Shown here one piece after another: positions 13,609 to 34,244 of a DNA stretch of 64,000 nucleotides. Each line of letters begins with the position of its first letter. The stretch's first letter is position 1. This DNA comes from a virus. Taxonomy: Duplodnaviria > Caudoviricetes. Both the position numbers and the translations under genes were made by a program. The stretch is from positions 1 to 64,000 of the IMG/VR virus record IMGVR_UViG_3300028914_001625; one strand, 5' to 3'. The notes below the pieces were generated by a model. The model had not been told where the DNA came from, searched no databases, and was given only the letters and a program-made list of their open reading frames with translations.

Positions 13609-15099
13609 TTACTTAATTGTGATCGGAGCGTAACGGTCACCGAGCAAGACCTTCTTCAAAGCCTCAAACGGTCCCTTAGCGTCATTCATCACAATCTCGA
13701 TGGCGTTCTGGCTGAAGCCAGATACCAACTTGACACCAGACGGGTTAGTCTGCATAGGCACAGTATTTGTGCGTCCGCAAACGTTCCAGAATGTGATGCC
13801 AGGAAGTGTGTAGCCTGCGTTCTTCCAGTCCTGAGCGATCTTACCAAACAAAGTCTGGCTAGGACGATGTGTAGTAGCGCAGTCAAACTCCATGTCGGAG
13901 ATAATCAAGACCTCAGGGATTTCCTTCTGGTCAAGATGTGCATGACGGGCAGTCTGGAGAAGGAGGTCAAACACCTTCTCGATGTTTGTGTTAGAAATGT
14001 CTGCTTCTTGAACTGCACGGACAATCTTGTCACGCAAAGTTGTCAAGTTAGACAAGTCTACATACTTCGGCGAAGAAGAGAATGTAATGAACTTGTCCTT
14101 ATACTCCGGAGAGCAATGCTCAGAGAAGTAAATGGCAAGTGCAGTAGCGATGTCAAGCGGAGTTGCATTTGTTCCGCTGATTCCGCGGTCCATAGAGCCT
14201 GAACCGTCACGAACAACGATGACCGGCTTAGCCGATGCATCTCGTGCTGGAAGACCCTTCCACATACCCTCAAGAGCTGCGTCTACAGGACCGTTCTTAT
14301 TACCCCAACGAGTAAGACCATAAGAAGCGATAATGTCATGCGGGAAGCATGCAGCGGAATGAATCTTTGCCTCGCCCTTGACCAACTTGCCCAAGAACTC
14401 ACGACGACGAGTTTCGTCATTGCGGAGGAAGGCGTTCTTATACTTGAGGTTAGCCTTTGACGGCACCTTCTCATAGTCAATGTCACCCCACTCCTTCGCA
14501 CAGATCTTCTGCTCGATGACACCGATGTACTTACGAAGTCCAGAGAGCATCTTACGGTACTCTGCTGGAGAGATCTTCATAGCCTTGATGTACTTCAAGG
14601 CAAGCTGGCGAGCAGCCTTAGAAGAGGTGTTCACAGAAGGAAGCCACTTGGCAAGCAAGGATACTGACTTTCCTGCCTTCATGTTGTTGATGTCTTCCAA
14701 AAGAGTCTTCTGGACATAAGTCAACATTTCCTGCTCAGCTGTAGTACCGAACAACTCTGACAAGATGTCAAAGCGAGAGTACACACCGATCTGCGGAATG
14801 AGATGCGGGAAAAGTGGAATGACATGCTTGACCAAAGTTCGGAAAAGACGACGCTCGCCGAGACCTTCTCTTACGTCACCTGCATAGAACATCCACTTTG
14901 TAGCGAGTTCCGGGTTCTCAGAGAATGCCTTCAAGAAGTCATTCACAATTTCATTTTCTGGCTTTGTTCGGTAACCTGTTACCTTCCAGTTCATATCAAC
15001 GAGAGCCGATCCTGAGGTCTCAAAACCGACTGCGCCATTCTCTGTGCGCTTTGTTGCCTTATCAAGTTCTGCCTTAAGCTTATCGTAAAAGCCTGCCAT
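13609..15099 (-). CDS. DUF2828 family protein (TROVE/Ro60-like domain plus vWA/MIDAS)
   Basis: RTENGA, DVREGLGERRLFR, SLLAKWLPS, YEKVPSKA, VVRDGSGSM (DxSxS MIDAS), IISDMEFD, FWNV. Confidence 0.8.
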   Translation of the reverse strand: MAGFYDKLKAELDKATKRTENGAVGFETSGSALVDMNWKVTGYRTKPENEIVNDFLKAFSENPELATKWMFYAGDVREGLGERRLFRTLVKHVIPLFPHLIPQIGVYSRFDILSELFGTTAEQEMLTYVQKTLLEDINNMKAGKSVSLLAKWLPSVNTSSKAARQLALKYIKAMKISPAEYRKMLSGLRKYIGVIEQKICAKEWGDIDYEKVPSKANLKYKNAFLRNDETRRREFLGKLVKGEAKIHSAACFPHDIIASYGLTRWGNKNGPVDAALEGMWKGLPARDASAKPVIVVRDGSGSMDRGISGTNATPLDIATALAIYFSEHCSPEYKDKFITFSSSPKYVDLSNLTTLRDKIVRAVQEADISNTNIEKVFDLLLQTARHAHLDQKEIPEVLIISDMEFDCATTHRPSQTLFGKIAQDWKNAGYTLPGITFWNVCGRTNTVPMQTNPSGVKLVSGFSQNAIEIVMNDAKGPFEALKKVLLGDRYAPITIK

Positions 15100-15188: not shown

Positions 15189-15225
15189 AATATAAAAAAG
15201 ATTTGGGGTATTGGCAACCCCAAAT
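15189..15225 (-). promoter_or_regulatory. sigma70-type promoter TTGCCA-N17-TATATT with the -35 inside a 9-bp hairpin
   Basis: Minus strand: atttgggg-TTGCCA-ataccccaaat-cttttt-TATATT. Confidence 0.75.
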
Positions 15226-15298: not shown

Positions 15299-16063
15299 CT
15301 ATTCTTCCGGAGGCAACTGCTCAAGAAGAGGAACGAATGTATCGTTCATCGGTGGAATGTATGCCGGCAGACGTAGATAGTCAAGTTTGAAACGATTTCT
15401 CTTGAACATATCCATGATCTTATTGTAATGCGGTCCCTGCTTGCCTTCACGAATAAGTTCATTTACTTCGTGATAAGTAAAGCCGAGTTTCTGTTCATCA
15501 GAAAGATCCTGAAGACCATCAACCGGAGTCTTATGCGTGAGATCATAAGGGAGACCAAGTTCGTCACCCACTGCAACAACTTCTTCTGTCGTCAAGCGAG
15601 CAATAGGCATGATGGAAGTGAAGTTGTCTCCACCCCAAGTTGCATAGCCTACAATGTCTTCGCTTCGGTTACAAGTACCGATGACGAATGCCTTCTTCAT
15701 GCCTTGAGCAATGCAGTGCAGCGAAGCCATGCGAAGACGGGCAGGAAGGTTTGTGCGAGAATCATATGTTGCGAACGGAACCTGTCCAATAATGGACTCA
15801 AAGGCGCCTTCAATGTTAAGGGTCATGCGAGGAATCTGCAAGTGGTCGCATACACGCATCGAGTCGCTGATATCCTTCTGAACGCCGTTGGGCAGCATGA
15901 CACCAAGAACATTCTCTTTTCCGAATGCCTTGACGCAAAGAGCAGCGACTACCGAAGAGTCCTTACCGCCGGAGATGCCGACGACTGCCTTTTCAAAGCC
16001 CTTAATTTCCTGCTGACGCTTAAGCCATGCGACAAGTGCTTCTGCCAAATCTTTCGGTTCCAT
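15299..16063 (-). CDS. nadE: NH3-dependent NAD+ synthetase
   Basis: VVGISGGKDSSVVAAL, NLPARLRM, GTCNRSE..VGYATWGGD, KTPVDGL..SDEQKLG; 254 aa with no glutaminase domain. Confidence 0.92.
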   Translation of the reverse strand: MEPKDLAEALVAWLKRQQEIKGFEKAVVGISGGKDSSVVAALCVKAFGKENVLGVMLPNGVQKDISDSMRVCDHLQIPRMTLNIEGAFESIIGQVPFATYDSRTNLPARLRMASLHCIAQGMKKAFVIGTCNRSEDIVGYATWGGDNFTSIMPIARLTTEEVVAVGDELGLPYDLTHKTPVDGLQDLSDEQKLGFTYHEVNELIREGKQGPHYNKIMDMFKRNRFKLDYLRLPAYIPPMNDTFVPLLEQLPPEE

Positions 16064-16064
16064 C

Positions 16065-16652
16065 TTAACGCTCCACAGTAATCTGGTTCATTGCCATAAC
16101 GGTGAGAGCTGCTTCATGCGATTCCGGAGTGATGCCGGCGCAGCAGTTTTCAACGACCGTAATCTTCATGTTCGGGAAAAGCGAACGAAGAATGAGAGCG
16201 TTCGAGATCACACAGATGTCAGTGCAGAAACCGAACAATTCAATTTCATCAAACTTGAACTGCTTAAGGTATTCCTTCCAACCGTCCCAACCGAATGTAT
16301 ACTTGTCAATGCAGAAGAACTTAGTCGGACCGTTCATTCCGTTCTTTGCCTGACATGCCTTAAGCAAAGTCGGATGGATTTCCCAGCCTTCAGTTAGCTT
16401 AATGCAATGAGCAGGAAGACCAGCGAACTTGTGTTCGTAAGAATCTTCATAAGCAATTCCTTCCTGAGGAGGCCAGTTGCTTTCAACTTGAACCTTATTG
16501 AAGTGTGTGTCATGAGTAGCGATGAGGTCGCCGTCATGAGCGTTAATGCGGGCAACAAGGTTAGGAAGACGCTTCTGTGCTTCGGGGTTAGCGAGAGCGC
16601 CGTCAATAAAATCCTTCTGGCCGTCAATCAAAATCTGGAGCTTCTTAGCCAT
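16065..16652 (-). CDS. pncA: Nicotinamidase (isochorismatase family)
   Basis: IDGQKDFIDGAL, THDTH, PAHCI..TEGW, K.TFG, GFCTDICVISNA (catalytic Cys). Confidence 0.88.
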   Translation of the reverse strand: MAKKLQILIDGQKDFIDGALANPEAQKRLPNLVARINAHDGDLIATHDTHFNKVQVESNWPPQEGIAYEDSYEHKFAGLPAHCIKLTEGWEIHPTLLKACQAKNGMNGPTKFFCIDKYTFGWDGWKEYLKQFKFDEIELFGFCTDICVISNALILRSLFPNMKITVVENCCAGITPESHEAALTVMAMNQITVER

Positions 16653-16654
16653 TT

Positions 16655-16993
16655 TTATTTCTTCCTTTTTACATTTTTGTCTTTTTGAATTTCAATCGTA
16701 ATGTCTCGTCCGTAGATGTCAACAAGTTTTCCATCATAGGTATAGATGCGGATAAACTTTGTGCCATCTTGAGTAGTCAGCCACTTATATGTCTTGAAGT
16801 TCTCGACTTGCTGTTCATAACAGACGCCGTTCCTGCAGACATTAAGCGACTTGTTTTCAGCGGGAATCTTCGGGCATAGAACAAGAACGAGAAGTATTAC
16901 GGCTGCTGCAATAATAATCGCAACATGAAATGCGCGGTTTGCTTCCTTCTCGCCGAATTCTTTACTCATGTTCAACTCTCCACTTAATAGCAC
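16655..16993 (-). CDS. Membrane-anchored hypothetical protein between pncB and pncA
   Basis: TM helix VAIIIAAAVILLVLVLC. Confidence 0.6.
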   Translation of the reverse strand: MLLSGELNMSKEFGEKEANRAFHVAIIIAAAVILLVLVLCPKIPAENKSLNVCRNGVCYEQQVENFKTYKWLTTQDGTKFIRIYTYDGKLVDIYGRDITIEIQKDKNVKRKK

Positions 16994-18185
16994 GCTTCAA
17001 GTATTCGTGATATTCTTCGCTCTTACCCATAAACTTACCGTCATCGTCCGATACCTTACATACCGGGATTCCGTTGACTTCTGTCAACTTGATGACCTGA
17101 TTCATCGGCTTGAACCAACCCGTATCGTTAAGCAGCCAAGTACCGATACCAAAGGCGACATTGCAGCGGAGGCTGAAGCGCTGGTAGATAACTTCTGCTT
17201 TTTCAAAGTTCAACGAGTCAGAGAACAAGAGGGTCTTTTCCTGAGTCTTGATACCGAGAGCCATGTAGTGAGCAAGCATCTTCTCGCCCCAAGCAATCGG
17301 GTCTGCCGAGTCATGTCTGACACCACCAAAGACCTTTGCGACAGGTGCCTTGAAGTCCTTCAAGAAGCAGTCAGTCGTGACGCAGTCGGTAAGATAGATA
17401 CCGTTCTTGTCGCCATATTCCTTAATCCAATGCTTCATCATGTACATGTTGGAATATGCCGGGTTATGCTGCGGAAGACCCTGACCTACAAGTTCAATCG
17501 CTTCGTGAGCCATAGTTCCAATCGGCTTGGTGCCGAACAAGAACGAGAAGTAAACATTGGAAGTACCAACAAACTTCGTTCCCTTGAACTGGAACTGACT
17601 GATGTAACGGAGAGCCCATTCTTGGAACTCCTTACAGAAACGACGACGAGTACCAAATTCCGAGAAAGCACCGATCTTGATTTCACCCTTGATGAGTTTC
17701 TCAACCTTGGCGATGAAGCGCTTCTTAGCGTCTTCAATGATCTGCTTCTGTTCTTCCGGAGTGTAGGTCATACGGAACCAAACTTCCGAAACGATGGACA
17801 TCACCGGAACTTCGTGATAAGAAACGTCAACATTGTAGCCACGGAAATGGATTTCCGGCTGTTGAATCTTTTCGTCAAAGACGCAAGTGATTTCATCACG
17901 GTCAATTGTGTAACGCTGAAGGAAGCGAACGTAGTCGTCCTTCATGTGGTCAATCTTCTTGAAGTTAGAAAGTTCCCACTGTGTATAACGGAGTTTGGAA
18001 TAAAGGTCAATCTGATAGTTGATTTCGTCAATCATTTCCTTAGTGAAATGACGTTCTGGGTCGCGGTTCTTGTAAGTCCACTCGACCTTCATATCGTGGA
18101 ACTGATGCACGAACATCTGACCCATTGTGTACTTGTAGTAGTCATTGTCCGTGAGATGTGTAATGATCTGCGGTAAATGTGCCAT
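16962..18185 (-). CDS. pncB: Nicotinate phosphoribosyltransferase
   Basis: TDNDYYKYTM, SEFGTRRRF, GTSNV, PIGTMAHE, GVRHDSADP, LFSDSL, FGIGT, KVSDDDGK: E. coli-type PncB motifs. Confidence 0.92.
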   Translation of the reverse strand: MAHLPQIITHLTDNDYYKYTMGQMFVHQFHDMKVEWTYKNRDPERHFTKEMIDEINYQIDLYSKLRYTQWELSNFKKIDHMKDDYVRFLQRYTIDRDEITCVFDEKIQQPEIHFRGYNVDVSYHEVPVMSIVSEVWFRMTYTPEEQKQIIEDAKKRFIAKVEKLIKGEIKIGAFSEFGTRRRFCKEFQEWALRYISQFQFKGTKFVGTSNVYFSFLFGTKPIGTMAHEAIELVGQGLPQHNPAYSNMYMMKHWIKEYGDKNGIYLTDCVTTDCFLKDFKAPVAKVFGGVRHDSADPIAWGEKMLAHYMALGIKTQEKTLLFSDSLNFEKAEVIYQRFSLRCNVAFGIGTWLLNDTGWFKPMNQVIKLTEVNGIPVCKVSDDDGKFMGKSEEYHEYLKRAIKWRVEHE

Positions 18186-18199
18186 TTTGTGTTTCCTTT

Positions 18200-18559
18200 T
18201 TAATCTTTAAAATACGGCTGCAGCGCAGTAATGTATGCGTCAACCGGCTTGTCCATTTCATTCGGTTCAGCCTCTACACACTGCTTGTAAAATGCTTCAT
18301 TGTAGTACTTGGACTTTTCTTTGAAGCAGAGTTCATACAGTTCATTGACGAACTTGTAGCGGTGCATCTTTTCAGGATTCTGCGAGATACCGATGAGGTA
18401 GTTGAAGTTTCGCTTCAGAAGTTTCGGAGTTTCCTTCTTGCACTTATGCAGATAGACAGAACATTGCTGATACTGCTGACAGGCAAGATAGCGGCCTACA
18501 TTCTGTGTAATTGTAAGGTCCGGCTTAAAGAGGCGAAGAAAAAGTTCTTTCATATTCAT
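18200..18559 (-). CDS. Hypothetical protein
   Basis: ORF. Confidence 0.6.
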   Translation of the reverse strand: MNMKELFLRLFKPDLTITQNVGRYLACQQYQQCSVYLHKCKKETPKLLKRNFNYLIGISQNPEKMHRYKFVNELYELCFKEKSKYYNEAFYKQCVEAEPNEMDKPVDAYITALQPYFKD

Positions 18560-18572
18560 AAAAATAAGGAAA

Positions 18573-18596
18573 GAACTGCTAGTTACCTAGCAGTTC
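18573..18596 (-). terminator. Intrinsic terminator
   Basis: 10-bp gaactgctag/ctagcagttc stem followed by a T-rich run on the minus strand. Confidence 0.65.
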
Positions 18597-18609
18597 AAAG
18601 GTTAAAGAC

Positions 18610-19311
18610 TTACTTGTCTTCGTTCTTGTTTTCGTTAAGAGTCTGAGGTGCCGGAGCAGTTTCATCGCCTTCATCGAAGTCAATGTCAAACATCTTACCG
18701 AAGTCCAAACCGCCAAGAAGGCCACCGTTTCCACCGCCAAGCATAGTCTGCATAGCGAGGAGCGGCATGATTCCCTGGAACATCTGGCCCATAGGATTCT
18801 GGTCAGCAGCGGTCTTGCCAGTTGCCTTTCCGCCGAAGAGGTTGCCGTTGTTCATCACTTCCTGCATGACAGCAAGGCCAAGCATGCTCTTAAGCGCGTT
18901 GCCGCCCTTGCCGAACTGCTTTCCGAACGGATTTACGACCTTACCGTAGAAGTAGGAAGCACCCCAAAGAACATGATGTTCAGGATAGATGTCTTCACGC
19001 TTGTTAGTTTCATAGTCAATGACAGTGACGGTTCCTTCGTCCTTGCCGTTGACCTTGATGACGCACTTTGCTTCGCCATCAACGATAATGACATCACCAG
19101 TCTTGACCTTTGCGGTCGGCATGACGAAGAACATATCAATTCCGTTCATGCAGAGTTCAGTGACGTTGGTAAGACGCTTGGTGTTCACATCAAAGGTCTT
19201 GTAACCTTTGCTGGTGTTGACTGCAAGCTGGCCGTCAAGAGAAAGAGCGAAGTCGCCCTTATTCATCTTTCCGAACATACCGTTAAACATGTTACCGAGG
19301 TTGAGATTCAT
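18610..19311 (-). CDS. Hypothetical protein with Gly/Met-rich C-terminus
   Basis: ORF with biased codon use and a good SD. Confidence 0.7.
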   Translation of the reverse strand: MNLNLGNMFNGMFGKMNKGDFALSLDGQLAVNTSKGYKTFDVNTKRLTNVTELCMNGIDMFFVMPTAKVKTGDVIIVDGEAKCVIKVNGKDEGTVTVIDYETNKREDIYPEHHVLWGASYFYGKVVNPFGKQFGKGGNALKSMLGLAVMQEVMNNGNLFGGKATGKTAADQNPMGQMFQGIMPLLAMQTMLGGGNGGLLGGLDFGKMFDIDFDEGDETAPAPQTLNENKNEDK

Positions 19312-19363
19312 AGTAAATTTTCCTTTTTGTTTGGAGGTTTGAGTTTTGTTTGATTACGTAGTA

Positions 19364-19395
19364 AATATAAAAATAAATGGGTTGTTTGGCAACCC
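19364..19395 (-). promoter_or_regulatory. sigma70-type promoter TTGCCA-N17-TATATT with the -35 inside a hairpin
   Basis: Minus strand: gggTTGCCAaacaacccatttatttt-TATATT. Confidence 0.75.
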
Positions 19396-19401
19396 GTTGA
19401 A

Positions 19402-21408
19402 TTAGATTTTTTGCTTTTTGTTTCTCTTAAGAGTAATTACAGGCATTTCCATGAAAGAGTAAGTTGTTACAGCGTCTGCCTTCTTAGCAGGCTTCTTCAA
19501 GGTAATGCGTTCTTCCTTAACTTCCGCGTCTTGCTTTTCTTTAACTTCAATTTCAAAGTCAAGATCCATTGGAGTGTTGAGCCAGCAATGAAGATGGCCG
19601 TCATAAAAGCAATTACACATATCCATAATTTCACGATTAGTCATCTGTCTTACAGTGAAGTCACCCATCTGTTCACAAAGGTGAGGAATACGTCCGTTGT
19701 CTTGGTTGATTAAGATGCAGACATCAGGCTTGGTAGCATCAATGTCAAACTTATATTCGTGTGCCCAAGAAAGTTTCAAAGTAAGACCAACTTCATTACG
19801 GTCAGTTTCCGGATTTCTGTAGATCTTAGAGTCATAATCTACCTTCATGCCGCGAGACTGAAGATAGCTAGCGACATCGTTGAGATTCTTCTGATTTACA
19901 GGAATGACGAGGAGAGATGGAAGCATGTTATCATTAAGATAGACATCTAATCTCTGAACGTTCTTAAGAACTTTCTTCTTCTTTACCATTTTCTTTTCTT
20001 CCTTTTTCTTTAAGCCAAGATTGCTTTCCATAAGTTGGCGAACCTTCTCTGACAGATCATTCTTTATTTTTTCAAGTTCATTTGGTTCAGCGCTGCGGCG
20101 CAGCATTGTATTTGCGCGGCATCTTGCGACAAAGTCCAGCATTTCTTGCTGGTTCTTTCGTTCATCACCCCAGCGGTCACAATCGTAACCTTGCATTTCT
20201 TGCTGATGCTTTAGTTCGTCACCCCAGCGGTCATAATCGTATCCGACTTCTTGATTCATTTCTGTTTCCTTTTCAGTTGTGGTTAGTGTAGTTACATGTG
20301 GATAAAATTCAATCGGTCCTTCATAAAAGCCAGTGCATTCATTAAGCTTGAGTTGATAATAGTCGTTAATCATCATGTACTTAACAAGCATGATTCTTGT
20401 ATTTGCGTAGCACTGACATACATCTGATTTTTCCGACAGTTCGTCACACCCATATCCGTAGCATTCATCTTCCCAATTCCAAGTTCTATAAGTATACTTG
20501 TGGTCATGAATTTTTACATCTATCTGGTCAAGATGTCCAGCAGGATAAATCAAGTTCTTGGGAGTTCCATCATTTTTCATCTCAAAGAACTTGTGATACT
20601 CCTCACGCGGCAAGGGCGACTGCACTCTTGTCTGCTTTCCAATAGTCTGGAATACCAAGTCACGTCTGTCGTCATCATCAATGTTTTCAAACTTCTTGCC
20701 GACATTAGGCAAGATTTCAGACACAGTACCGAACAGCCAATACTCTGCATCACTGTCTTCAGATTTAAATCTGAAGTTCTCGAGAGGGAAGAGCGGCTTG
20801 AAACCCTTATGATGAACAGAAGGTCTTGCTCTGTTCTCATTTTCATTACTCTTCAACGGCCAAGCGTCATTGTAAAGAGTAAGCAAGTAAAGAAGTTTAG
20901 CAACCTTCAAATATCTTGGAGTTCCGTATTCAAGCTGGGTTGTCCTGTTAGAAACTTGCCAAGGAACCTGACCCCAAGATATAGCCTTCACTTCAGAAAG
21001 CGGGATGGTAAGTTCTTCATTGGTGTTATAGCTGGCAAAGTCGCCATCTTCCCAGTCATCATGCCAAGCAGGTTCAAGATGCAAACGTCCTACACAGTCA
21101 AACTTCTTAAACCAGTAAGGTTTCAGTGTGAAATTGAAATCTGACCTGAAGTCGCCGTGAGTGCAGAGCTTGATGTACATCGGCTTGGAAGGTTCAAATT
21201 CCTTAAAGAGCGGGAACTCGAAGTAAGTCATTCTTCCCCAGCCCATACGGTTAAGGCACTTATTGTCCTTAAGAATTTGGCCGGAGATTACATAATCCTT
21301 CTCATCCCGCTTGTCAATGTTATCAAGTAAATAACATTTCTTGTCTCCCCATACATAACTGACATTCTCGCCAATCGGAGACATCCAAAATTTAAAGTTG
21401 CTTGCCAT
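19402..21408 (-). CDS. Large hypothetical protein (668 aa) with an internal 18-aa duplication
   Basis: ORF. Confidence 0.7.
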   Translation of the reverse strand: MASNFKFWMSPIGENVSYVWGDKKCYLLDNIDKRDEKDYVISGQILKDNKCLNRMGWGRMTYFEFPLFKEFEPSKPMYIKLCTHGDFRSDFNFTLKPYWFKKFDCVGRLHLEPAWHDDWEDGDFASYNTNEELTIPLSEVKAISWGQVPWQVSNRTTQLEYGTPRYLKVAKLLYLLTLYNDAWPLKSNENENRARPSVHHKGFKPLFPLENFRFKSEDSDAEYWLFGTVSEILPNVGKKFENIDDDDRRDLVFQTIGKQTRVQSPLPREEYHKFFEMKNDGTPKNLIYPAGHLDQIDVKIHDHKYTYRTWNWEDECYGYGCDELSEKSDVCQCYANTRIMLVKYMMINDYYQLKLNECTGFYEGPIEFYPHVTTLTTTEKETEMNQEVGYDYDRWGDELKHQQEMQGYDCDRWGDERKNQQEMLDFVARCRANTMLRRSAEPNELEKIKNDLSEKVRQLMESNLGLKKKEEKKMVKKKKVLKNVQRLDVYLNDNMLPSLLVIPVNQKNLNDVASYLQSRGMKVDYDSKIYRNPETDRNEVGLTLKLSWAHEYKFDIDATKPDVCILINQDNGRIPHLCEQMGDFTVRQMTNREIMDMCNCFYDGHLHCWLNTPMDLDFEIEVKEKQDAEVKEERITLKKPAKKADAVTTYSFMEMPVITLKRNKKQKI
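20139..20244. repeat. Two-copy 54-nt in-frame tandem repeat
   Basis: Copies start at 20139 and 20193; encode GYDYDRWGDELKHQQEMQ and GYDCDRWGDERKNQQEML. Confidence 0.9.
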
Positions 21409-21653
21409 TAAGTGTTTCCTCGTGAGTTAGGAGTCTTAGTACTTCCACTCACATACTTAGTGTGAATTACATTAGCAGTGATAAAATGTGCTACTTTCTC
21501 AAGGAACCTGTCTTCTTCAAGATAGAAGATGTCCATTCCATACCAGCTGCAAAAGTTTGACATAAACTGACCAAAACGCCAGTCTGGGAAGTTCTTCTTG
21601 TGAATTTCCTTCAGTTGTTCATAGAAGGTATCAAGACGAGCAGCATCTCTCAT
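21408..21653 (-). CDS. Small phage protein, weakly DUF1040/YihD-like
   Basis: MRDAARLD...PDWRFGQF...DIFYLEED pattern. Confidence 0.5.
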   Translation of the reverse strand: MRDAARLDTFYEQLKEIHKKNFPDWRFGQFMSNFCSWYGMDIFYLEEDRFLEKVAHFITANVIHTKYVSGSTKTPNSRGNT

Positions 21654-21685
21654 TTTAAGTTCCTCTTTTAAAGTTTTCTAAAACA

Positions 21686-21720
21686 AAAATATAAAAAACT
21701 TGGGGTCTTGTAAACCCCAA
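21686..21720 (-). promoter_or_regulatory. sigma70-type promoter TTTACA-N17-TATTTT with the -35 inside a hairpin
   Basis: Minus strand: ttggggTTTACAagaccccaagtttttta-TATTTT. Confidence 0.7.
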
Positions 21721-21743
21721 ATTTATAAGATCTTTCTTAAAGA

Positions 21744-22178
21744 CTAAAGGCTAAACAAACCATAGCCTGCGCCTTCTAACTGGAAGCTCTGTTCTTGATT
21801 CGGAATGTAGTAACGTTCCCATTCAAAGTCAGGAATGAAGTGCTTGACCAATTCCATAGCGATGGAAACAAAGTCGTCGTCGCCATCAACCCAGTAGCGC
21901 TTATCATCATCGTCGTCATCATCATTTTCAAGATACTCTTCCTTAATGATTCCGAGCTCAAGAAGCTTGTCAAGGGCTTCGCCGCGAATATATCTGTCTT
22001 CGTAGTCGCTGCACATTTTTTGAACGTCGCAGCCAAGTTCTTTAGCACACTTTTCAAGAGCTTTATCAATCTCCTTACCGGAATGATTAGCGCAGATAGT
22101 CCAATCTTCTTTAAGACCAGAGCCATCGCCTGACGGATCGCCCATTGTGAAAGTGATAATGTGATTTTTCTTTGCCAT
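21744..22178 (-). CDS. Acidic hypothetical protein
   Basis: ORF with a poly-Asp run. Confidence 0.65.
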   Translation of the reverse strand: MAKKNHIITFTMGDPSGDGSGLKEDWTICANHSGKEIDKALEKCAKELGCDVQKMCSDYEDRYIRGEALDKLLELGIIKEEYLENDDDDDDDKRYWVDGDDDFVSIAMELVKHFIPDFEWERYYIPNQEQSFQLEGAGYGLFSL

Positions 22179-22191
22179 AGTATGTTTCCTT

Positions 22192-22707
22192 TTATTTTGT
22201 TTGAATTCTTTTCACGACGTCAGCCTGCATCTTTGACCAATCAGGATCCGGCTGTTCGTCCATAATCTTGTCTGACCATTCTTGATTAGCACAAGGCTGG
22301 TAGTCACCGCAGGTACCACAGGCACACTTACAGGTATGACAGTAAATGTTACCGTCCGAAGGAATGTAAGCACGGAGCTTATCAGACGGGTCAAGATAGA
22401 CGACAAAGTGGACGGGATATTCCCAGTCGCCGCCTGCCCAACACCAGACGATAGCGGTTCCATCAGGAAGAACGCGAGAACCTTCAGTAGCTCCTTCACA
22501 GTTCTCGAAGTCAAAATCAATCTTTTCAAGATCCTTACGAGCCTGCGTGTCGCTGTAAGCCATAGAAGACAGATACTGACAAATTATCTGGTCTTCGTCA
22601 GTTTCATCAAAATCTTCTGGGTCAATTTCTTGGTCCTTTCTGATAAACTCAAGCATCTTTTGAATGATGTCTTGACGAGTTGAACCTTTCTTAGCATATC
22701 TTGCCAT
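22192..22707 (-). CDS. Hypothetical protein with a Cys cluster
   Basis: CHTCKCACGTC motif; aaggag SD. Confidence 0.65.
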   Translation of the reverse strand: MARYAKKGSTRQDIIQKMLEFIRKDQEIDPEDFDETDEDQIICQYLSSMAYSDTQARKDLEKIDFDFENCEGATEGSRVLPDGTAIVWCWAGGDWEYPVHFVVYLDPSDKLRAYIPSDGNIYCHTCKCACGTCGDYQPCANQEWSDKIMDEQPDPDWSKMQADVVKRIQTK

Positions 22708-22731
22708 AGTTTTACTCCTTTAATACTTTCC

Positions 22732-22932
22732 TTACTTTTGAACACAAACCCAGTTAACGGAGCCGCCATTACTCTGGTTATTCCTTACACTAGGTTGAGC
22801 CTTTGCCCATTCCGCACCTGCAAAGCGGCATGTAGCAGCACTATTAAATTCCTGAGTTGCTACCGTTGAACTGCCCCAACCCGCATAACCGGAATTACCT
22901 GCAAAGACGATAGTCATAATGAGAATCCACAT
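22732..22932 (-). CDS. Small secreted or membrane protein with two Cys
   Basis: Start MWILIMTIVFAG at 22932 after a gagg SD. Confidence 0.55.
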   Translation of the reverse strand: MWILIMTIVFAGNSGYAGWGSSTVATQEFNSAATCRFAGAEWAKAQPSVRNNQSNGGSVNWVCVQK

Positions 22933-22946
22933 TTTTATTACCTCTT

Positions 22947-23282
22947 TTAGTTGCCGCCTTCGGCTTCTTGAATGATCATATCTTTTACTTTTGGTGAAAG
23001 ACAAAGTTCATATCTGTCTTTGTCATAATAAACCAATTGCGGTGTGACTTGAGGCACTTTCGGATCATCTGACATTTCCATCAAGCACATCGCATTGTAT
23101 GTTTGACCGTCAAGTTCAACGGGAATAGGAAGAGGCATGATCATCTTCTTATTCTTAAATTCTTTATTGCGGTCATAAACGTCCTTCCAAGTAAGCATGT
23201 GCGTTTCAGCAATCTTATAGAGAAGGTCATTTGCCTTCTTATCTTCTACATGTTTAACTTTTGCTTCCATTAGCCGTCCCAC
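22947..23282 (-). CDS. Hypothetical protein
   Basis: ORF; start may be MEAKVK. Confidence 0.6.
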   Translation of the reverse strand: MGRLMEAKVKHVEDKKANDLLYKIAETHMLTWKDVYDRNKEFKNKKMIMPLPIPVELDGQTYNAMCLMEMSDDPKVPQVTPQLVYYDKDRYELCLSPKVKDMIIQEAEGGN

Positions 23283-24328
23283 CTTTCTGTCTTGTTTCCC
23301 CAGTCATTGATGATTTGTGCATGATGGAATGCGAGATGCGGAAGGTCATTAACATTGAACCATCTTGCTTCTGCTGCGTCATCATCGCCCTTAGCAAGTT
23401 TCATATCCTGCTTGGAGATTCTTACTGCAAAGGCTACATCAACGATCTTCATTCTTGGGTCAAAGTTATGTCCGTAAGCCTTAATCTGCTGGAACTTCTC
23501 AGGATCATAATTAAGACCAGTTTCTTCCTTCAATTCTCGTGCAGCGCCGTAAGCCAAGTCTTCGTCTGTCTTTTCAAAGAATCCACCAGGCAAAGCCCAG
23601 TAATTTTGGAAAGGCGGTTTCTTTCTACGGATAAGAAGAATTTCATCACCGTTCCAAGCGATAGTGTCAGTTGTGACAGAAGGCTCGCCCCAATGATTTT
23701 CTTCTTTCTTCTTTGCATATTCCTGAAGGAACTTGAGTTCTTCCTTATCATACTCAGGTTTGTTCTGATGATAAAGTCCCCAGTCCTTAATTTCACGGAA
23801 CGCCTTATGAGTCAAGCAATCATTGACTTCATCATAATGGGTTTCAGGATTTCGGTCAAAGATCCGACGAACTTTAGACGAAGAACAGTCAGGCAAATCC
23901 AGCTTCATGATCTGGACATTATCAAGATGTTCTACAAGGTTATCTTCACGGGTAAAGACCAGGAACTTGAAGTTCTTCAAAAGCAAGTCGGAATGAACCC
24001 ACTCACCGGCCTTAAGCGACTTCCATTCGTCGCCGCCAATAACAATCGTATAATCGTTGTCATCTTCAGGTTTAACGTCTTGACGAATGAACTGATACAT
24101 TCTGTAAGCCTGTTCAACGACTTTGACATTCTTACTGAGCATTCCCTTAAGAGAAGCACAGACAAGCATCATACGGGAATTGATGCAAGCACCGTATTCC
24201 TTTTCGTCATTGTTCGTTACAGCGATGATAAGTTCATCACCATCCTTAAGCAGTTTCTTGACCTTCTTGATAATCTCAATATGAGCTTTCGTAATCGGGT
24301 CAGCGGCAAATCCATAAATGTAATGCAT
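23270..24328 (-). CDS. nadD: Nicotinate-nucleotide adenylyltransferase (NadD-like) fused to an ADP-ribose-type Nudix hydrolase
   Basis: YGFAADPITKAH ((T/H)xxH), IVIGGDEW.SL..W, CSSSKVR; Nudix part PSVTTD, WALPGGF, GAARELKEETGL, DPR, GDDDAAEARWF. Confidence 0.82.
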   Translation of the reverse strand: MHYIYGFAADPITKAHIEIIKKVKKLLKDGDELIIAVTNNDEKEYGACINSRMMLVCASLKGMLSKNVKVVEQAYRMYQFIRQDVKPEDDNDYTIVIGGDEWKSLKAGEWVHSDLLLKNFKFLVFTREDNLVEHLDNVQIMKLDLPDCSSSKVRRIFDRNPETHYDEVNDCLTHKAFREIKDWGLYHQNKPEYDKEELKFLQEYAKKKEENHWGEPSVTTDTIAWNGDEILLIRRKKPPFQNYWALPGGFFEKTDEDLAYGAARELKEETGLNYDPEKFQQIKAYGHNFDPRMKIVDVAFAVRISKQDMKLAKGDDDAAEARWFNVNDLPHLAFHHAQIINDWGNKTERWDG

Positions 24329-25926: not shown

Positions 25927-27228
25927 TTAGATAGAGTAGTTAGGGTTCTTTACCTTAAAGGAAACATTGTAGTCATCACGGAGACGAAGAACGAATCCTT
26001 CTCTCTTGTGCTTGAGGTTGTTTCCGAAGACAGTGTTCTTGTCAGACTGTTGAAGCATGATGTCAGCACCAGATACTTCAACACCTTGCTCGTTCACAGT
26101 TCCTGCAGGCAACTTGTAATGCTCGTCAAGAACAGGAACGAAAGGAAGTCCCCACTGTTCAGCAAAGAGCTTAGAGTCTTCGTAGTTCAACTTGACCCAA
26201 CGAGACTTCATCTTCTTGCCGTTCTTAACATCAAGGTACTTCTCCTTACGGTAGAAGTCAAAGAAGATGACCTGAGTCTGAGGCAACTTGTAGATGTTAC
26301 CTTGAATGTTAGGTCCGCAATGTTCACCACGGCACCACCATTCACCAGGAATGTTCTTAATCTTTTCATCAAGACCAAGTCTCTTTACAGTGTCCCAGAA
26401 GTTCTTACCAGTTCCGTTAGGACGGAGACGGCGAGTTCTAGAGCAGACACCGATGTCCTTGACTTCCTTCTTTCTGAACAAACCAAGGAATGTAGGCTTC
26501 ATGACCATTTCAGAGAAGATAGAGATGTTCTGACCTTCCAACTTCTCAGTAGCAACCCATTCCTTGTCTGCATACTGTTCATACATTCTCTTGTAGAGCT
26601 TCTGAACATTTTCTTCGTCAGACTTTCCAGGGAAGGTTGCGTCCCAACCCTCAACGATCTGATGAGCCTTACGGAGGTTGCGGAACCAAGAGAATCTCAT
26701 CAACTTTCTGACAAACCAGTTGTCCTTCTCTCCGCCTACTACTCCTGCTTCCTCTTCGTCCTGAATTGCTTCAGTGATTTCAAACTTAGCAGTGTAGTCC
26801 TGACCTTCCTTGACCTTGTCAAGTCCGATGTCGGAAGGCTTGAAGAGAATACCTTGAGAAATTACTCCGAACTTGGAGAGCTTCATAGACTTAATCTTGA
26901 ACTTCTTGTCTCTCAAGAACTCGAAGTATGGGAACTTGGACTGTGCTTGAACAGCAGCAAGAGCTGCCTTCACTTCCTCTTCAGTTGCAGTCTCACCGAG
27001 GGCAGTACCATCCTTGATAGAATCATACTTTACCTTAAGTTCAGGAGAAAGACCGTCAGGAAGGACAGAGTCAACTTCCACATACATAGCCAAATCACCT
27101 GGCTTGTATTCGTTCTTCTTTACTACAACAGTGTAGTCCATTACAGATGCCAACTCAATGCGGTCAGCACCTGGGATGTTTCTGATTTCACCTACCTTAA
27201 CGATGTAAGCGAGCTTCTTTCCATACAT
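25927..27228 (-). CDS. RNA ligase, Rnl2/DRB0094-like, with N-terminal OB-type domain
   Basis: KLAYIVKV.EIRNIPGADRIELA, GDLAMYVEVDSVLP, GVISQGI, motif I TEKLEGQN, GEHCGPNIQGN, REGFVLR, SFKVKNP. Confidence 0.85.
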   Translation of the reverse strand: MYGKKLAYIVKVGEIRNIPGADRIELASVMDYTVVVKKNEYKPGDLAMYVEVDSVLPDGLSPELKVKYDSIKDGTALGETATEEEVKAALAAVQAQSKFPYFEFLRDKKFKIKSMKLSKFGVISQGILFKPSDIGLDKVKEGQDYTAKFEITEAIQDEEEAGVVGGEKDNWFVRKLMRFSWFRNLRKAHQIVEGWDATFPGKSDEENVQKLYKRMYEQYADKEWVATEKLEGQNISIFSEMVMKPTFLGLFRKKEVKDIGVCSRTRRLRPNGTGKNFWDTVKRLGLDEKIKNIPGEWWCRGEHCGPNIQGNIYKLPQTQVIFFDFYRKEKYLDVKNGKKMKSRWVKLNYEDSKLFAEQWGLPFVPVLDEHYKLPAGTVNEQGVEVSGADIMLQQSDKNTVFGNNLKHKREGFVLRLRDDYNVSFKVKNPNYSI

Positions 27229-32424: not shown

Positions 32425-33756
32425 TTAGCAATCCCTCTTGTTTTCGTAAACGAATTTCAAAATCGGGAAGCGGAGAGAGTAAGTTCCGTTCTGATTCTTG
32501 GTTTCTTCAAAGTACTGCACAGTGACAGTCTTGCCGATGATCTTGGAAGGATCTTCATACCAAGCGATGCGCTGTTCCTTTGTGAGGCCAGAACCGACAC
32601 GAACGGTATTTCCGCGGTGGGTGATAAGAAGAGCCTTAACACCTGTGTACTTGACGTTTCCGAGGCCCGGTTCAGCAGTTGTCATTTCTGCAATTTCAAC
32701 ATCATTGACGACATATTCAGCGTCATCAAATTTCTTGACCTTGAGCAAGTTCTTGGAACGACCAGTTTCAAACGGAATGTCCTTGCGGAGCATGAAGCCT
32801 TCCCAATTTCCATCTTCAACATATTTGGTCCAGCGGTCAAAGTCTTCCTGAGACTTGATGAGTTCCTGTTTGAGAAGTTTGATTTCCTTGAACTTGTTTC
32901 CCTTCATCATCTTCTGCATCTGTTCATAACGAGCAGTGAAGTTTGCAGACTTGGTCTCGCCATTAAATTCGGCAAGAGTGCAGAAGTCAAACATCTGATA
33001 GCAAGGATCTTCAATAGTCCAGTCCTTTCGCTTGATTTCCTTCATGATGGCTTGGAAGTCTTCATCGCCATTTTCGTCAACTTTACAAAGTTCGCCGTCG
33101 GTAACATAGTCACCGTCCGGAAGATCGCGGAGATACCAAGCAAGTGCGGGTTTCACCTTGTCAAGTGTTGTGAATTCTTTGTTTCCACGAGAGAGGAAGG
33201 TTACATTGACTTCGCCGTCTGCTTTGTGGCACATACCGACGCAGCGGGTGCCGTCGCATTTACGAGAAGCATAGAAAGTTCCGTCAATCGGGTTCACGCC
33301 TTTTGCCTTGTCAAGGTTGATGGCAAGAGTGACTTCAAACTTTTCGGGAACACCAGATCCTGCAAGCTTAGCAAATGTGTCCTTAGAAAGACCGATCTTC
33401 AAATTGCGGTCAACAATGGCACATAGAATTTCCTGATCTTCTGCGACATACTTAGTGATGATGTCAACAACAAGTTCAATGGCGTCATTGCCAGTAACTT
33501 CACGAGCCGCAAGTTTATCAAGCACCTTGTGGAACTTGTCGTAATTCTTTTCAAGAGTAAGTTCACCAGTGAGGAAAGGCGGAACTTCAAATTTCTTGAC
33601 GTAATACATACGAGACTTATCGTATGTGTCATTGAAAATCTTGATGATGGTTTCCTTGACGCTTTCATCTTCGAGAGCTTGCTGCATCAGCGCAGTCTTG
33701 TCAGAGGAACCGGAGGTGGACTTGATAGAGTTAAAAATCTGGTGAATTTTAGTCAT
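32425..33756 (-). CDS. lig: ATP-dependent DNA ligase (T4 gp30-like)
   Basis: Motif I SRKCDGTR, TDGELC, EGFMLRK, LLKVKKFDDAEY, VGSGLT, SLRFP; start MTKIHQ at 33756 downstream of a promoter. Confidence 0.9.
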   Translation of the reverse strand: MTKIHQIFNSIKSTSGSSDKTALMQQALEDESVKETIIKIFNDTYDKSRMYYVKKFEVPPFLTGELTLEKNYDKFHKVLDKLAAREVTGNDAIELVVDIITKYVAEDQEILCAIVDRNLKIGLSKDTFAKLAGSGVPEKFEVTLAINLDKAKGVNPIDGTFYASRKCDGTRCVGMCHKADGEVNVTFLSRGNKEFTTLDKVKPALAWYLRDLPDGDYVTDGELCKVDENGDEDFQAIMKEIKRKDWTIEDPCYQMFDFCTLAEFNGETKSANFTARYEQMQKMMKGNKFKEIKLLKQELIKSQEDFDRWTKYVEDGNWEGFMLRKDIPFETGRSKNLLKVKKFDDAEYVVNDVEIAEMTTAEPGLGNVKYTGVKALLITHRGNTVRVGSGLTKEQRIAWYEDPSKIIGKTVTVQYFEETKNQNGTYSLRFPILKFVYENKRDC

Positions 33757-33786
33757 GGATTTTTCCTTTTGAAATTTTACGATATA

Positions 33787-33815
33787 AAAATAACAACTTT
33801 TGAAGCAAATGTCAA
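33787..33815 (-). promoter_or_regulatory. Promoter TTGACA-N17-TATTTT with AAAGTTGT
   Basis: Minus strand: TTGACAtttgcttcaAAAGTTGT-TATTTT. Confidence 0.75.
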
Positions 33816-33830
33816 TCGGTTTTATGCGAT

Positions 33831-34244
33831 TTATCTTTGTTCTTTCCATTCAGGCAAGTTGTGGCGCTTTCTGAAGTCTTCCACAATCGGAATCCACTTG
33901 TCGCAGAGAGCCTTTCTGTCTTTCCAATACTCAGGGTTGTTATCCAACTTACTGACTACATTGGGTTGGTAGGAAAGTTTTATCTTAAACTCCATCGGAC
34001 AGTCAGGATCCGGCCTGATGTACTTCGCTCTGATGTCCTGCAGCTCCGCTTGGAACGGGTTCCAAAGTTCATCGTCAAAGATTTTGACTGCTTCATTAAA
34101 GCGTCTCATATCTTCCGCACGTTCTTCAGGGTCTAAAGCGACTTTCATGAAAGGATCAGTCATGTCGCAGTGAGTATCTATCAGCAAGTGCTTGAGTTTG
34201 TGTGCCTGAACGTCTTCTTTAAGAGTGTCAATTTCCTGAGACAT
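33831..34244 (-). CDS. Hypothetical protein
   Basis: ORF with an aggag SD. Confidence 0.6.
   Translation of the reverse strand: MSQEIDTLKEDVQAHKLKHLLIDTHCDMTDPFMKVALDPEERAEDMRRFNEAVKIFDDELWNPFQAELQDIRAKYIRPDPDCPMEFKIKLSYQPNVVSKLDNNPEYWKDRKALCDKWIPIVEDFRKRHNLPEWKEQR

Follow-up and report, generated by a model that had tools for sequence, protein, structure and literature searches.

A phage gene set predicted to encode Preiss-Handler NAD+ salvage, with a NadD-like domain fused to a Nudix domain

Results

A stretch of 64,000 nt (hereafter the window) from the IMG/VR virus record IMGVR_UViG_3300028914_001625 was examined for four genes whose predicted products would convert nicotinamide to nicotinamide adenine dinucleotide (NAD+) by the deamidating, or Preiss-Handler, route. 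The full record (i.e. G000) comprises 82,750 bp and is rated as 25% complete. Three of the genes are located back to back on the minus strand together with a small open reading frame (ORF): nadE (NH3-dependent NAD+ synthetase; 15299..16063), a pncA-like nicotinamidase gene (16065..16652), orf112 (16655..16993) and pncB (ATP-coupled nicotinate phosphoribosyltransferase; 16962..18185). The fourth gene (23270..24328, minus strand) lies 5 kb upstream and encodes a NadD-like nicotinate mononucleotide (NaMN) adenylyltransferase joined to an NrtR/NadM-type ADP-ribose (ADPR) Nudix domain. Gaps of 1 nt separate pncA from nadE and of 2 nt separate orf112 from pncA, whilst orf112 overlaps the end of pncB. 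This layout, with conserved motifs in each of the four products, is that of the original prediction and was confirmed by the ORFs, family scores, profiles and folds.

The 407-aa PncB protein was assigned using family scores, PDB matches, a catalytic motif and a phylogenetic tree. Scores were above the curated cut-offs of both TIGR01514 (336.8 versus 269.55 bits) and NF003704 (401.9 versus 379 bits), and the NAPRTase_N and NAPRTase domains (i.e. PF17767 and PF04095) were both found. All six PDB matches were nicotinate phosphoribosyltransferases (NAPRTases), with the highest score (235 bits) for P. aeruginosa PncB2 (1yir). The histidine of the GTMAHE motif (H227), which is presumably the phosphorylation site for ATP coupling, was invariant in a 21-sequence alignment and aligned with the motif in 1yir. 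A nicotinamide phosphoribosyltransferase (i.e. Nampt/NadV) identity was rejected as the curated PncB cut-offs were passed, the PDB matches were NAPRTases and the PHROG Nampt family scored 42 bits where the PncB models reached about 400. Each of G000 and two near-complete relatives (i.e. G001 and G002) contained one gene of the NAPRTase family, which was of the PncB type, and no second copy. By this assignment the enzyme would prefer nicotinate over nicotinamide.

The PncA-like protein (195 aa) matched PF00857 with 60 bits. In an alignment of 36 sequences, K117 of the D10/K117/C147 triad was invariant and D10 and C147 were at least 90% conserved. All three residues of the metal site (i.e. D48-x-H50...H82) were invariant in the 36 homologues and aligned with the DxH...H residues of the A. 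baumannii nicotinamidase 2wt9. This Asp/His/His metal site is not known from other isochorismatase-like hydrolases. An AlphaFold model was obtained with a predicted local distance difference test (pLDDT) score of 94.9. Nicotinamidases constituted most of the best Foldseek matches of this model in the PDB, including the top four (E 5e-13, template-modelling (TM) scores of 0.74-0.82), and the best of these were from B. subtilis, P. horikoshii, A. baumannii, S. mutans, S. pneumoniae and S. aureus. The conserved residues and the modelled fold support the assignment of this isochorismatase-family protein as a probable nicotinamidase.

For the 254-aa NadE protein, scores of 154 bits with PF02540 and of 156.8 bits with TIGR00552 (cut-off of 63.65) were obtained, and an SGGKDS sequence corresponding to the SGGxDS ATP-pyrophosphatase loop was present. 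A glutaminase domain is absent from the 254 aa, and all PDB matches of single-domain length (i.e. about 250-310 aa) were NH3-dependent NadE proteins, with 2e18 and 1xng as the best.

The 352-aa fusion protein was divided by Pfam into a CTP_transf_like domain (residues 10-155) and a NUDIX domain (residues 221-338). A profile of 31 homologues matched NadD structures across the whole N-terminal domain (positions 3-199; 5llt, E 6e-12; 2h29, E 9e-11), whereas matches of the same profile to phosphopantetheine adenylyltransferase (PPAT) were limited to the first ~60 residues. The adenylyltransferase domain was judged not to be NadM, as NadM structures matched the linker and Nudix part alone in the profile search. 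Foldseek gave a NadD-like fold for the N-terminal domain alone (TM 0.76; B. anthracis and E. faecium NadD), the bifunctional NadM-Nudix architecture for the whole model (2r5w, 2qjt and 2qjo), and a resemblance to the ADPR-binding domains of NrtR and NadM for the Nudix domain (with matches to the NrtR effector domains 2fml and 3gz8). Four motifs were conserved across the 31 homologues, namely GxxxDPxTxxH, GxDxW (G98-D100...W110), SSSxVR (S149-S150...R154) and the Nudix REx2EE; within the Nudix box (GX5EX7REUXEEXGU), the REx2EE, G and U positions were intact and invariant. In this clade, intact Nudix signatures have been associated with ADPR pyrophosphatase activity and degenerate signatures with pure ligand binding (Rodionov et al. 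2008, PMC2330246). The invariance of the catalytic glutamates therefore favours catalysis over a sensor role, and the fused Nudix domain most likely cleaves ADPR to AMP and ribose-5-phosphate.

The NadD-like domain is, however, very divergent, and its probable substrate is drawn mainly from gene context. Scores were below the curated NadD cut-offs (TIGR00482, 41.8 versus 112.45; PRK00071, 46 versus 167), the HxGH motif is replaced by TKAH, and a PDB search with the single N-domain sequence returned weak PPAT matches only and no NadD. Additionally, the Gx5E spacer of the Nudix box is one residue longer than in Butyrivibrio NrtR and Synechocystis NadM. The low scores, variant motif and missing NadD matches also favour a rival explanation in which the fusion is chiefly an NrtR-derived ADPR hydrolase or sensor and the host NadD converts NaMN to nicotinate adenine dinucleotide (NaAD); in variants of this explanation the fusion perhaps regulates its own N-domain or acts on another nucleotide. 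The proximity of the Nudix domain to ADPR-binding NrtR effector domains (38% identity to Butyrivibrio NrtR) points in the same direction, as do the distance of 5-27 kb between this gene and pncB in the window and in G001 and G002, and a locus (i.e. L116) in which NadD-Nudix is found beside an RNA ligase gene with no other NAD genes within 10 kb. We consider this explanation quite improbable given the profile match to NadD over the whole N-domain, the NadD-like fold, the conservation of GxxxDPxTxxH, GxDxW and SSSxVR in the 31 homologues, the invariant REx2EE of the Nudix box, and the occurrence of the fusion gene in direct clusters with pncB, pncA and nadE at two loci (L013 and L114) and in the same 17-kb region at a third (L115). 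The case for NaMN as substrate of the NadD-like domain draws mainly on this recurrent clustering with salvage genes, and a preference for NaMN over nicotinamide mononucleotide (NMN) would also be expected from the co-occurrence with PncB and NadE and the absence of Nampt.

The distribution of the fusion was examined in bacterial, cultured-phage and metagenomic sequences. The full NadD::Nudix fusion was not found in 201 Lachnospiraceae genomes, in which every match consisted of the Nudix part only, and 50,697 GenBank phage records yielded no match spanning 80% of the protein. Metagenomic homologues numbered more than 3,000, and many of their contigs were 250-370 kb long. The ORF for this protein in G001 is intact (374 aa), a flagged internal TAA being its own stop codon.

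Co-occurrence of the four genes, a check proposed with the original prediction, was assessed in related viruses. PncA, PncB, NadE and NadD::Nudix were all present in 5/5 related virus records tested, including G001 and G002. Thirteen IMG/VR loci encoded PncB proteins with 72-87% identity to that of the window, two of these loci being within the near-complete genomes of G001 and G002. Gene order was variable. A tight nadD-Nudix/pncB/pncA/.../nadE block was observed in G005 (i.e. locus L013), and L114, whose PncB is 55% identical, exhibited an Isochorismatase..PncB..NadD-Nudix-NadE arrangement in about 5.6 kb. In L115, an NAD+-dependent ligase, a longer NAPRTase, NadD-Nudix, Isochorismatase and NadE were encoded within 17 kb, whilst the four genes of G002 were scattered across about 45 kb. 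The presence of all four genes in each of the five records and their tight clusters in L013, L114 and L115 indicate that the association is not due to chance, and NadD::Nudix is a genuine recurrent partner of the NAD salvage genes.

Two further arrangements were noted in GenBank phages. A TAG-recoded human-gut phage (Phage Phass-1, OQ749652.1, 96860-101298; L112) carries a variant NAD cluster beside a large tRNA array, in the order nicotinamidase, ribose-phosphate pyrophosphokinase, an annotated 'nicotinamide phosphoribosyltransferase', a hypothetical protein and a NadE-like protein. In a 735-kb 'uncultured phage' (LR756501.1), nadE adjoins pncB at 428734-431429; a survey of jumbo phages (Li et al., Microbiome 2024, PMC11662467) credits this phage with nadD only.

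As operons of gut Clostridia typically hold this gene set and no capsid or terminase match was found in the 82.7-kb record itself, a bacterial chromosome or mis-binned host fragment with ordinary host salvage genes was considered as the source of the window. The record is an IMG/VR virus entry. Genes of phage type identified by PHROG matches in the window included those for a helicase, SbcC/SbcD, an ATP-dependent DNA ligase, an RNA ligase and a Ro/TROVE-like protein, and many other ORFs were without a known family. The nearest backbone was that of virus record G005, with identities of 72% for the helicase, 72% for the DNA ligase and 73% for the RNA ligase. More distant similarity was observed to G001 and G002, whose helicases are 46-47% identical to that of the window. 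G001 (424,163 bp, direct terminal repeats) is 100% complete and G002 (411,059 bp) is 98% complete. In each of the two, terminases and a capsid protein of the T4 Gp23 type (E about 1e-68 to 1e-70) are encoded. No matches were obtained in a megablast search of the 9-kb region against the 50,697 GenBank phage records. The virus record, the helicase similarity to other virus records, the Gp23 and terminase genes of the relatives and a viral clade of PncB (see below) led to rejection of host contamination, which we regard as scarcely credible; the phage origin of the gene set, on which the original prediction depended, was thereby borne out. The parent phage is predicted to be a T4-like jumbo phage of roughly 0.3-0.4 Mb.

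The ancestry of pncB was investigated by maximum likelihood. The protein was of the PncB type, and 58 viral/metagenomic PncB sequences fell on one side of a branch and 80 bacterial sequences on the other, with a Shimodaira-Hasegawa-like approximate likelihood ratio test (SH-aLRT) support of 99. This separate viral clade indicates that pncB has long been resident in phages and that its capture was not recent. The closest cellular PncB proteins, at just 45-49% identity, were those of rumen and gut Lachnospiraceae (e.g. Butyrivibrio and Roseburia), and pncA and/or nadE were found beside pncB in 50 of 80 such bacterial loci. One locus of Butyrivibrio sp. SIG348 (i.e. L044) had the order nrtR-pncA-nadD-pncB-nadE. 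The phage Nudix domain and linker were 38% identical (E 3e-28) to the NrtR of this locus, whilst the similarity of the phage NadD-like domain to the host NadD was barely recognisable. Lachnospiraceae nrtR-pncA-nadD-pncB-nadE operons look like the cellular source of the phage genes, and these operons share with the phage set both the four enzymes and an ADPR-binding Nudix domain. The domain partners differ, however: bacterial NrtR joins the Nudix domain to a winged-helix DNA-binding domain and acts as a repressor, with NadD free-standing, whereas in the phage the partner of the Nudix domain is a highly divergent NadD and no DNA-binding domain is present. The phage host is probably one of the rumen or gut Clostridia, and the source a herbivore gut.

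Differences in identity between genes were observed among the relatives. Window PncB was 87% identical to the proteins of G001 and G002 and 72% identical to that of G005; for PncA, identities were 64% (G001), 77% (G002) and 55% (G005). An identity of 87% for PncB against 46-47% for the helicase in G001 and G002, where G005 has 72% for both, suggests that a pncB/pncA(/orf119) cassette has been exchanged between jumbo-phage lineages, although very few backbone markers contribute to this comparison, the helicase being the sole one for G001 and G002. TnpB/IS605 OrfB-like genes (i.e. Cas12f1-like_TNB) are located beside the NAD clusters of the phage-like contigs L114 (15349-16542) and L115 (11851-13089) and are a possible vehicle for such cassettes.

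Other ORFs of the region were examined for an involvement in the module. The original prediction had described orf112 (minus strand) as a membrane ORF; a single hydrophobic helix is indeed present, but no Pfam, NCBIfam or PHROG match was found and its position is not conserved in relatives, in which a weak match (36% over 56 aa) occurs elsewhere in the layout. It appears to be filler outside the conserved module. The gene immediately upstream of pncB, orf119 (18200..18559, minus strand; 119 aa), encodes a protein without a detectable family and is a conserved neighbour, adjoining pncB in L002, L003 and L014 (64% identity) and in L007, L008, L011 and L012 (38-42%); its product is a possible accessory to the NAD module. 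No credible Pfam, NCBIfam or PHROG family was found for orf112, orf119, orf233, orf668 or eight small ORFs lying from pncB to beyond nadD, the only match among these being a sub-threshold one to Caa3_CtaG (15.8 bits). Atlas searches with orf119 and orf668 returned nothing usable.

Pattern scans for transcription signals returned consensus matches on the minus strand. A terminator-like hairpin with a 9-bp stem and T-run (15201..15225) lies 3' of nadE, and a sigma-70-like promoter match, TTGCCA-17-TATATT (19364..19392), is positioned such that it could drive orf233-orf119-pncB-orf112-pncA-nadE; another hairpin (18573-18596) is situated inside this putative unit. GC-rich hairpins at 25421-25393, 21724-21696, 19395-19379 and 15225-15201 (minus strand) each hold or overlap a sigma-70-like -35/-10 pair, and look like combined terminator-promoter elements that would split the region into transcription units. 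RNA-repair-like genes flank the NAD genes on both sides (13609-15099 and 25927-27228, minus strand); their products are a vWA protein of Ro/TROVE-like type (phrog_850, DUF2828/DUF7788) and an RNA ligase. L013 has these two flanking genes as well, and the RNA ligase gene of L116 is 1.7 kb upstream of NadD-Nudix.

Discussion

The family assignments and motifs support the four-step chemistry that was originally predicted, from nicotinamide through nicotinate, NaMN and NaAD to NAD+. PncA would hydrolyse nicotinamide to nicotinate and NH3; PncB, driven by ATP through a phosphohistidine, would combine nicotinate with phosphoribosyl pyrophosphate (PRPP) to yield NaMN; the NadD-like domain would use ATP to convert NaMN to NaAD; and the ammonia-dependent NadE would form NAD+ from NaAD, ATP and NH3. 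The idea that NH3 released by PncA feeds NadE holds in its 1:1 stoichiometry, but nothing was found that points to channelling, and gene adjacency was the only hint of binding between the two proteins. The Nudix domain would cleave ADPR to AMP and ribose-5-phosphate, from which the host Prs could produce PRPP. No match to a PRPS-like gene (PF13793) was obtained in G000, G001 or G002, so the route would depend on host PRPP. Such a module would be useful whatever yields nicotinamide and ADPR, be it phage NAD+ consumers or host NADase immunity.

The best explanation, which we hold with moderate confidence, is that the genes constitute a phage-borne Preiss-Handler NAD+ salvage module of host type that keeps NAD+ available through a long infection. 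Plain metabolic maintenance is an equally good reading of a phage cluster that mirrors a host-type operon, and it fits both the host-operon origin of the genes and the NAD+-dependent ligases of G001, G002 and L115. NAD+-dependent DNA ligase domains were detected in G001 and G002 and also adjoining the L115 cluster. The ligase of the window lineage (G000 and G005) is ATP-dependent (32425-33849, minus strand); no match to it was found in G001 or G002, where the adenylation domain of an NAD+-dependent ligase is present instead. A narrower proposal that the NAD+ feeds a phage NAD+-dependent ligase thus fits G001, G002 and L115 but not demonstrably the window lineage, and was set aside.

Alongside the divergence of the NadD-like domain, several points weigh against the salvage-module explanation. 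The PncA-like protein scored 42.3 bits with the NCBIfam nicotinamidase model PRK11609, far below its cut-off of 174. Within the sequenced 25% of the window genome, no NAD+-dependent ligase was detected and the lineage ligase is ATP-dependent, so that an internal NAD+ consumer would be conjectural for this phage. The literature searched contained no biochemical or genetic test of any phage Preiss-Handler set. The route would also cost host PRPP and several ATP per NAD+, an expense that also counts against the counter-defence role considered next.

Dedicated counter-defence is the principal rival for the biological role. The genes would then form a fourth NAD+ reconstitution pathway, expressed early and rebuilding NAD+ after its cleavage by the NADases of Thoeris, DSR and SIR2-HerA, with PncA taking the nicotinamide and the Nudix domain removing or recycling the ADPR. 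This role was proposed for the NAD-jumbo phages (PMC11662467). It gains from the presence of activities for exactly the two NADase products (i.e. PncA for nicotinamide and an ADPR-type Nudix domain) and from sigma-70-like promoter matches that suggest transcription, possibly early, by the host polymerase, although these promoter calls are consensus matches only. The apparent swapping of pncB and pncA between phage lineages is a further point in favour; gene swapping between phages is frequent for accessory genes, anti-defence genes among them. Many hosts, however, already own the same four enzymes. E. coli has all four, yet its NAD+ is still depleted by NADase defences, so flux through the route may be too slow unless the enzymes are strongly overexpressed. 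No supporting experiment was found in the literature searched, and each of the pathways NARP1, NARP2 and NARP3 is amidated and consists of two genes. We therefore treat a dedicated counter-defence role as a tentative possibility. Its most specific form, a deamidating reconstitution pathway against NADase immunity in which NadD-Nudix either recycles ADPR to PRPP or acts as an ADPR-switched adenylyltransferase, is rather unlikely. Maintenance and counter-defence are inseparable by sequence data.

The predicted route was compared with the known phage systems for NAD+ restoration. Like NARP2, as represented by NadV and NatV of Vibrio phage KVP40, it would lead from nicotinamide to NAD+ using PRPP; the KVP40 adenylyltransferase is also fused to an ADPR Nudix domain, and the whole-protein fold of the window fusion matches NadM-Nudix. 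NARP2, however, has two amidated steps via NMN, whereas the window route would have four steps via nicotinate and require NadE, and the Nampt and NadM-type enzymes of NARP2 are replaced by a PncB-type phosphoribosyltransferase and a NadD-type adenylyltransferase. NARP1 (i.e. Adps and Namat) and NARP3 (i.e. PnuC and NadR) share with the window set the restoration of NAD+ by phage-encoded proteins. In contrast to NARP1, no PRPS-like/Adps gene is present in G000, G001 or G002 and ADPR is probably hydrolysed and not pyrophosphorylated; in contrast to NARP3, no PnuC match (PF04973) was found in these three genomes, and import of nicotinamide riboside by this means is not predicted. The original claim that the set is distinct from NARP1 and NARP2 therefore stands, as a PRPS-like gene is lacking and the sole NAPRTase-family gene is of the PncB type. 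PncA, PncB and NadE are unmentioned in the reports on NARP1 and NARP2 (bioRxiv 10.1101/2024.02.11.579819) and NARP3 (PMC13464706); a 2022 survey of viral NAD+/ADPR genes (PMC9503650) covers NadV, NadM and NadR only, and a November 2026 review names NARP1 and NARP2 alone under NAD+ reconstitution.

The novelty that had been implied for a phage deamidating route was not upheld, as Preiss-Handler phage sets and the idea of counter-defence were published in 2024 (PMC11662467). That paper describes, from bioinformatics only, 174 'NAD-jumbo phages' of animal guts in which salvage or Preiss-Handler pathways are complete, including a pncB-nadD-nadE cluster in Kuafu_71; phage pncA is mentioned, and both NAD+ supply and a counter to NAD+ depletion are proposed. 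The window set resembles those of the NAD-jumbo phages, which are gut jumbo phages with pncB, nadD and nadE that are often clustered. G001 and G002 have the size (>200 kb) and the three genes (pncB, nadD and nadE) by which such phages are defined, whilst the record of the window is an 82.7-kb fragment. The NadD::Nudix fusion, the four-step unit with entry through PncA and the T4-like 0.4-Mb lineage are not described in the part of the paper available. The present analysis makes three modest additions, namely a recurrent fusion of NadD to an NrtR-like Nudix domain that was not found in the cultured-phage records or host family sampled, signs of pncB/pncA movement between jumbo-phage lineages, and a probable host-operon origin for the genes. 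Since the bench-shown systems NARP1, NARP2 and NARP3 are all two-gene and amidated, a working four-enzyme deamidating route, if true, would represent the use by phages of classical bacterial salvage and would add a testable anti-defence candidate. The window itself mainly adds one lineage to a published idea, leaving the overall picture unchanged whilst providing details that ease the design of bench tests.

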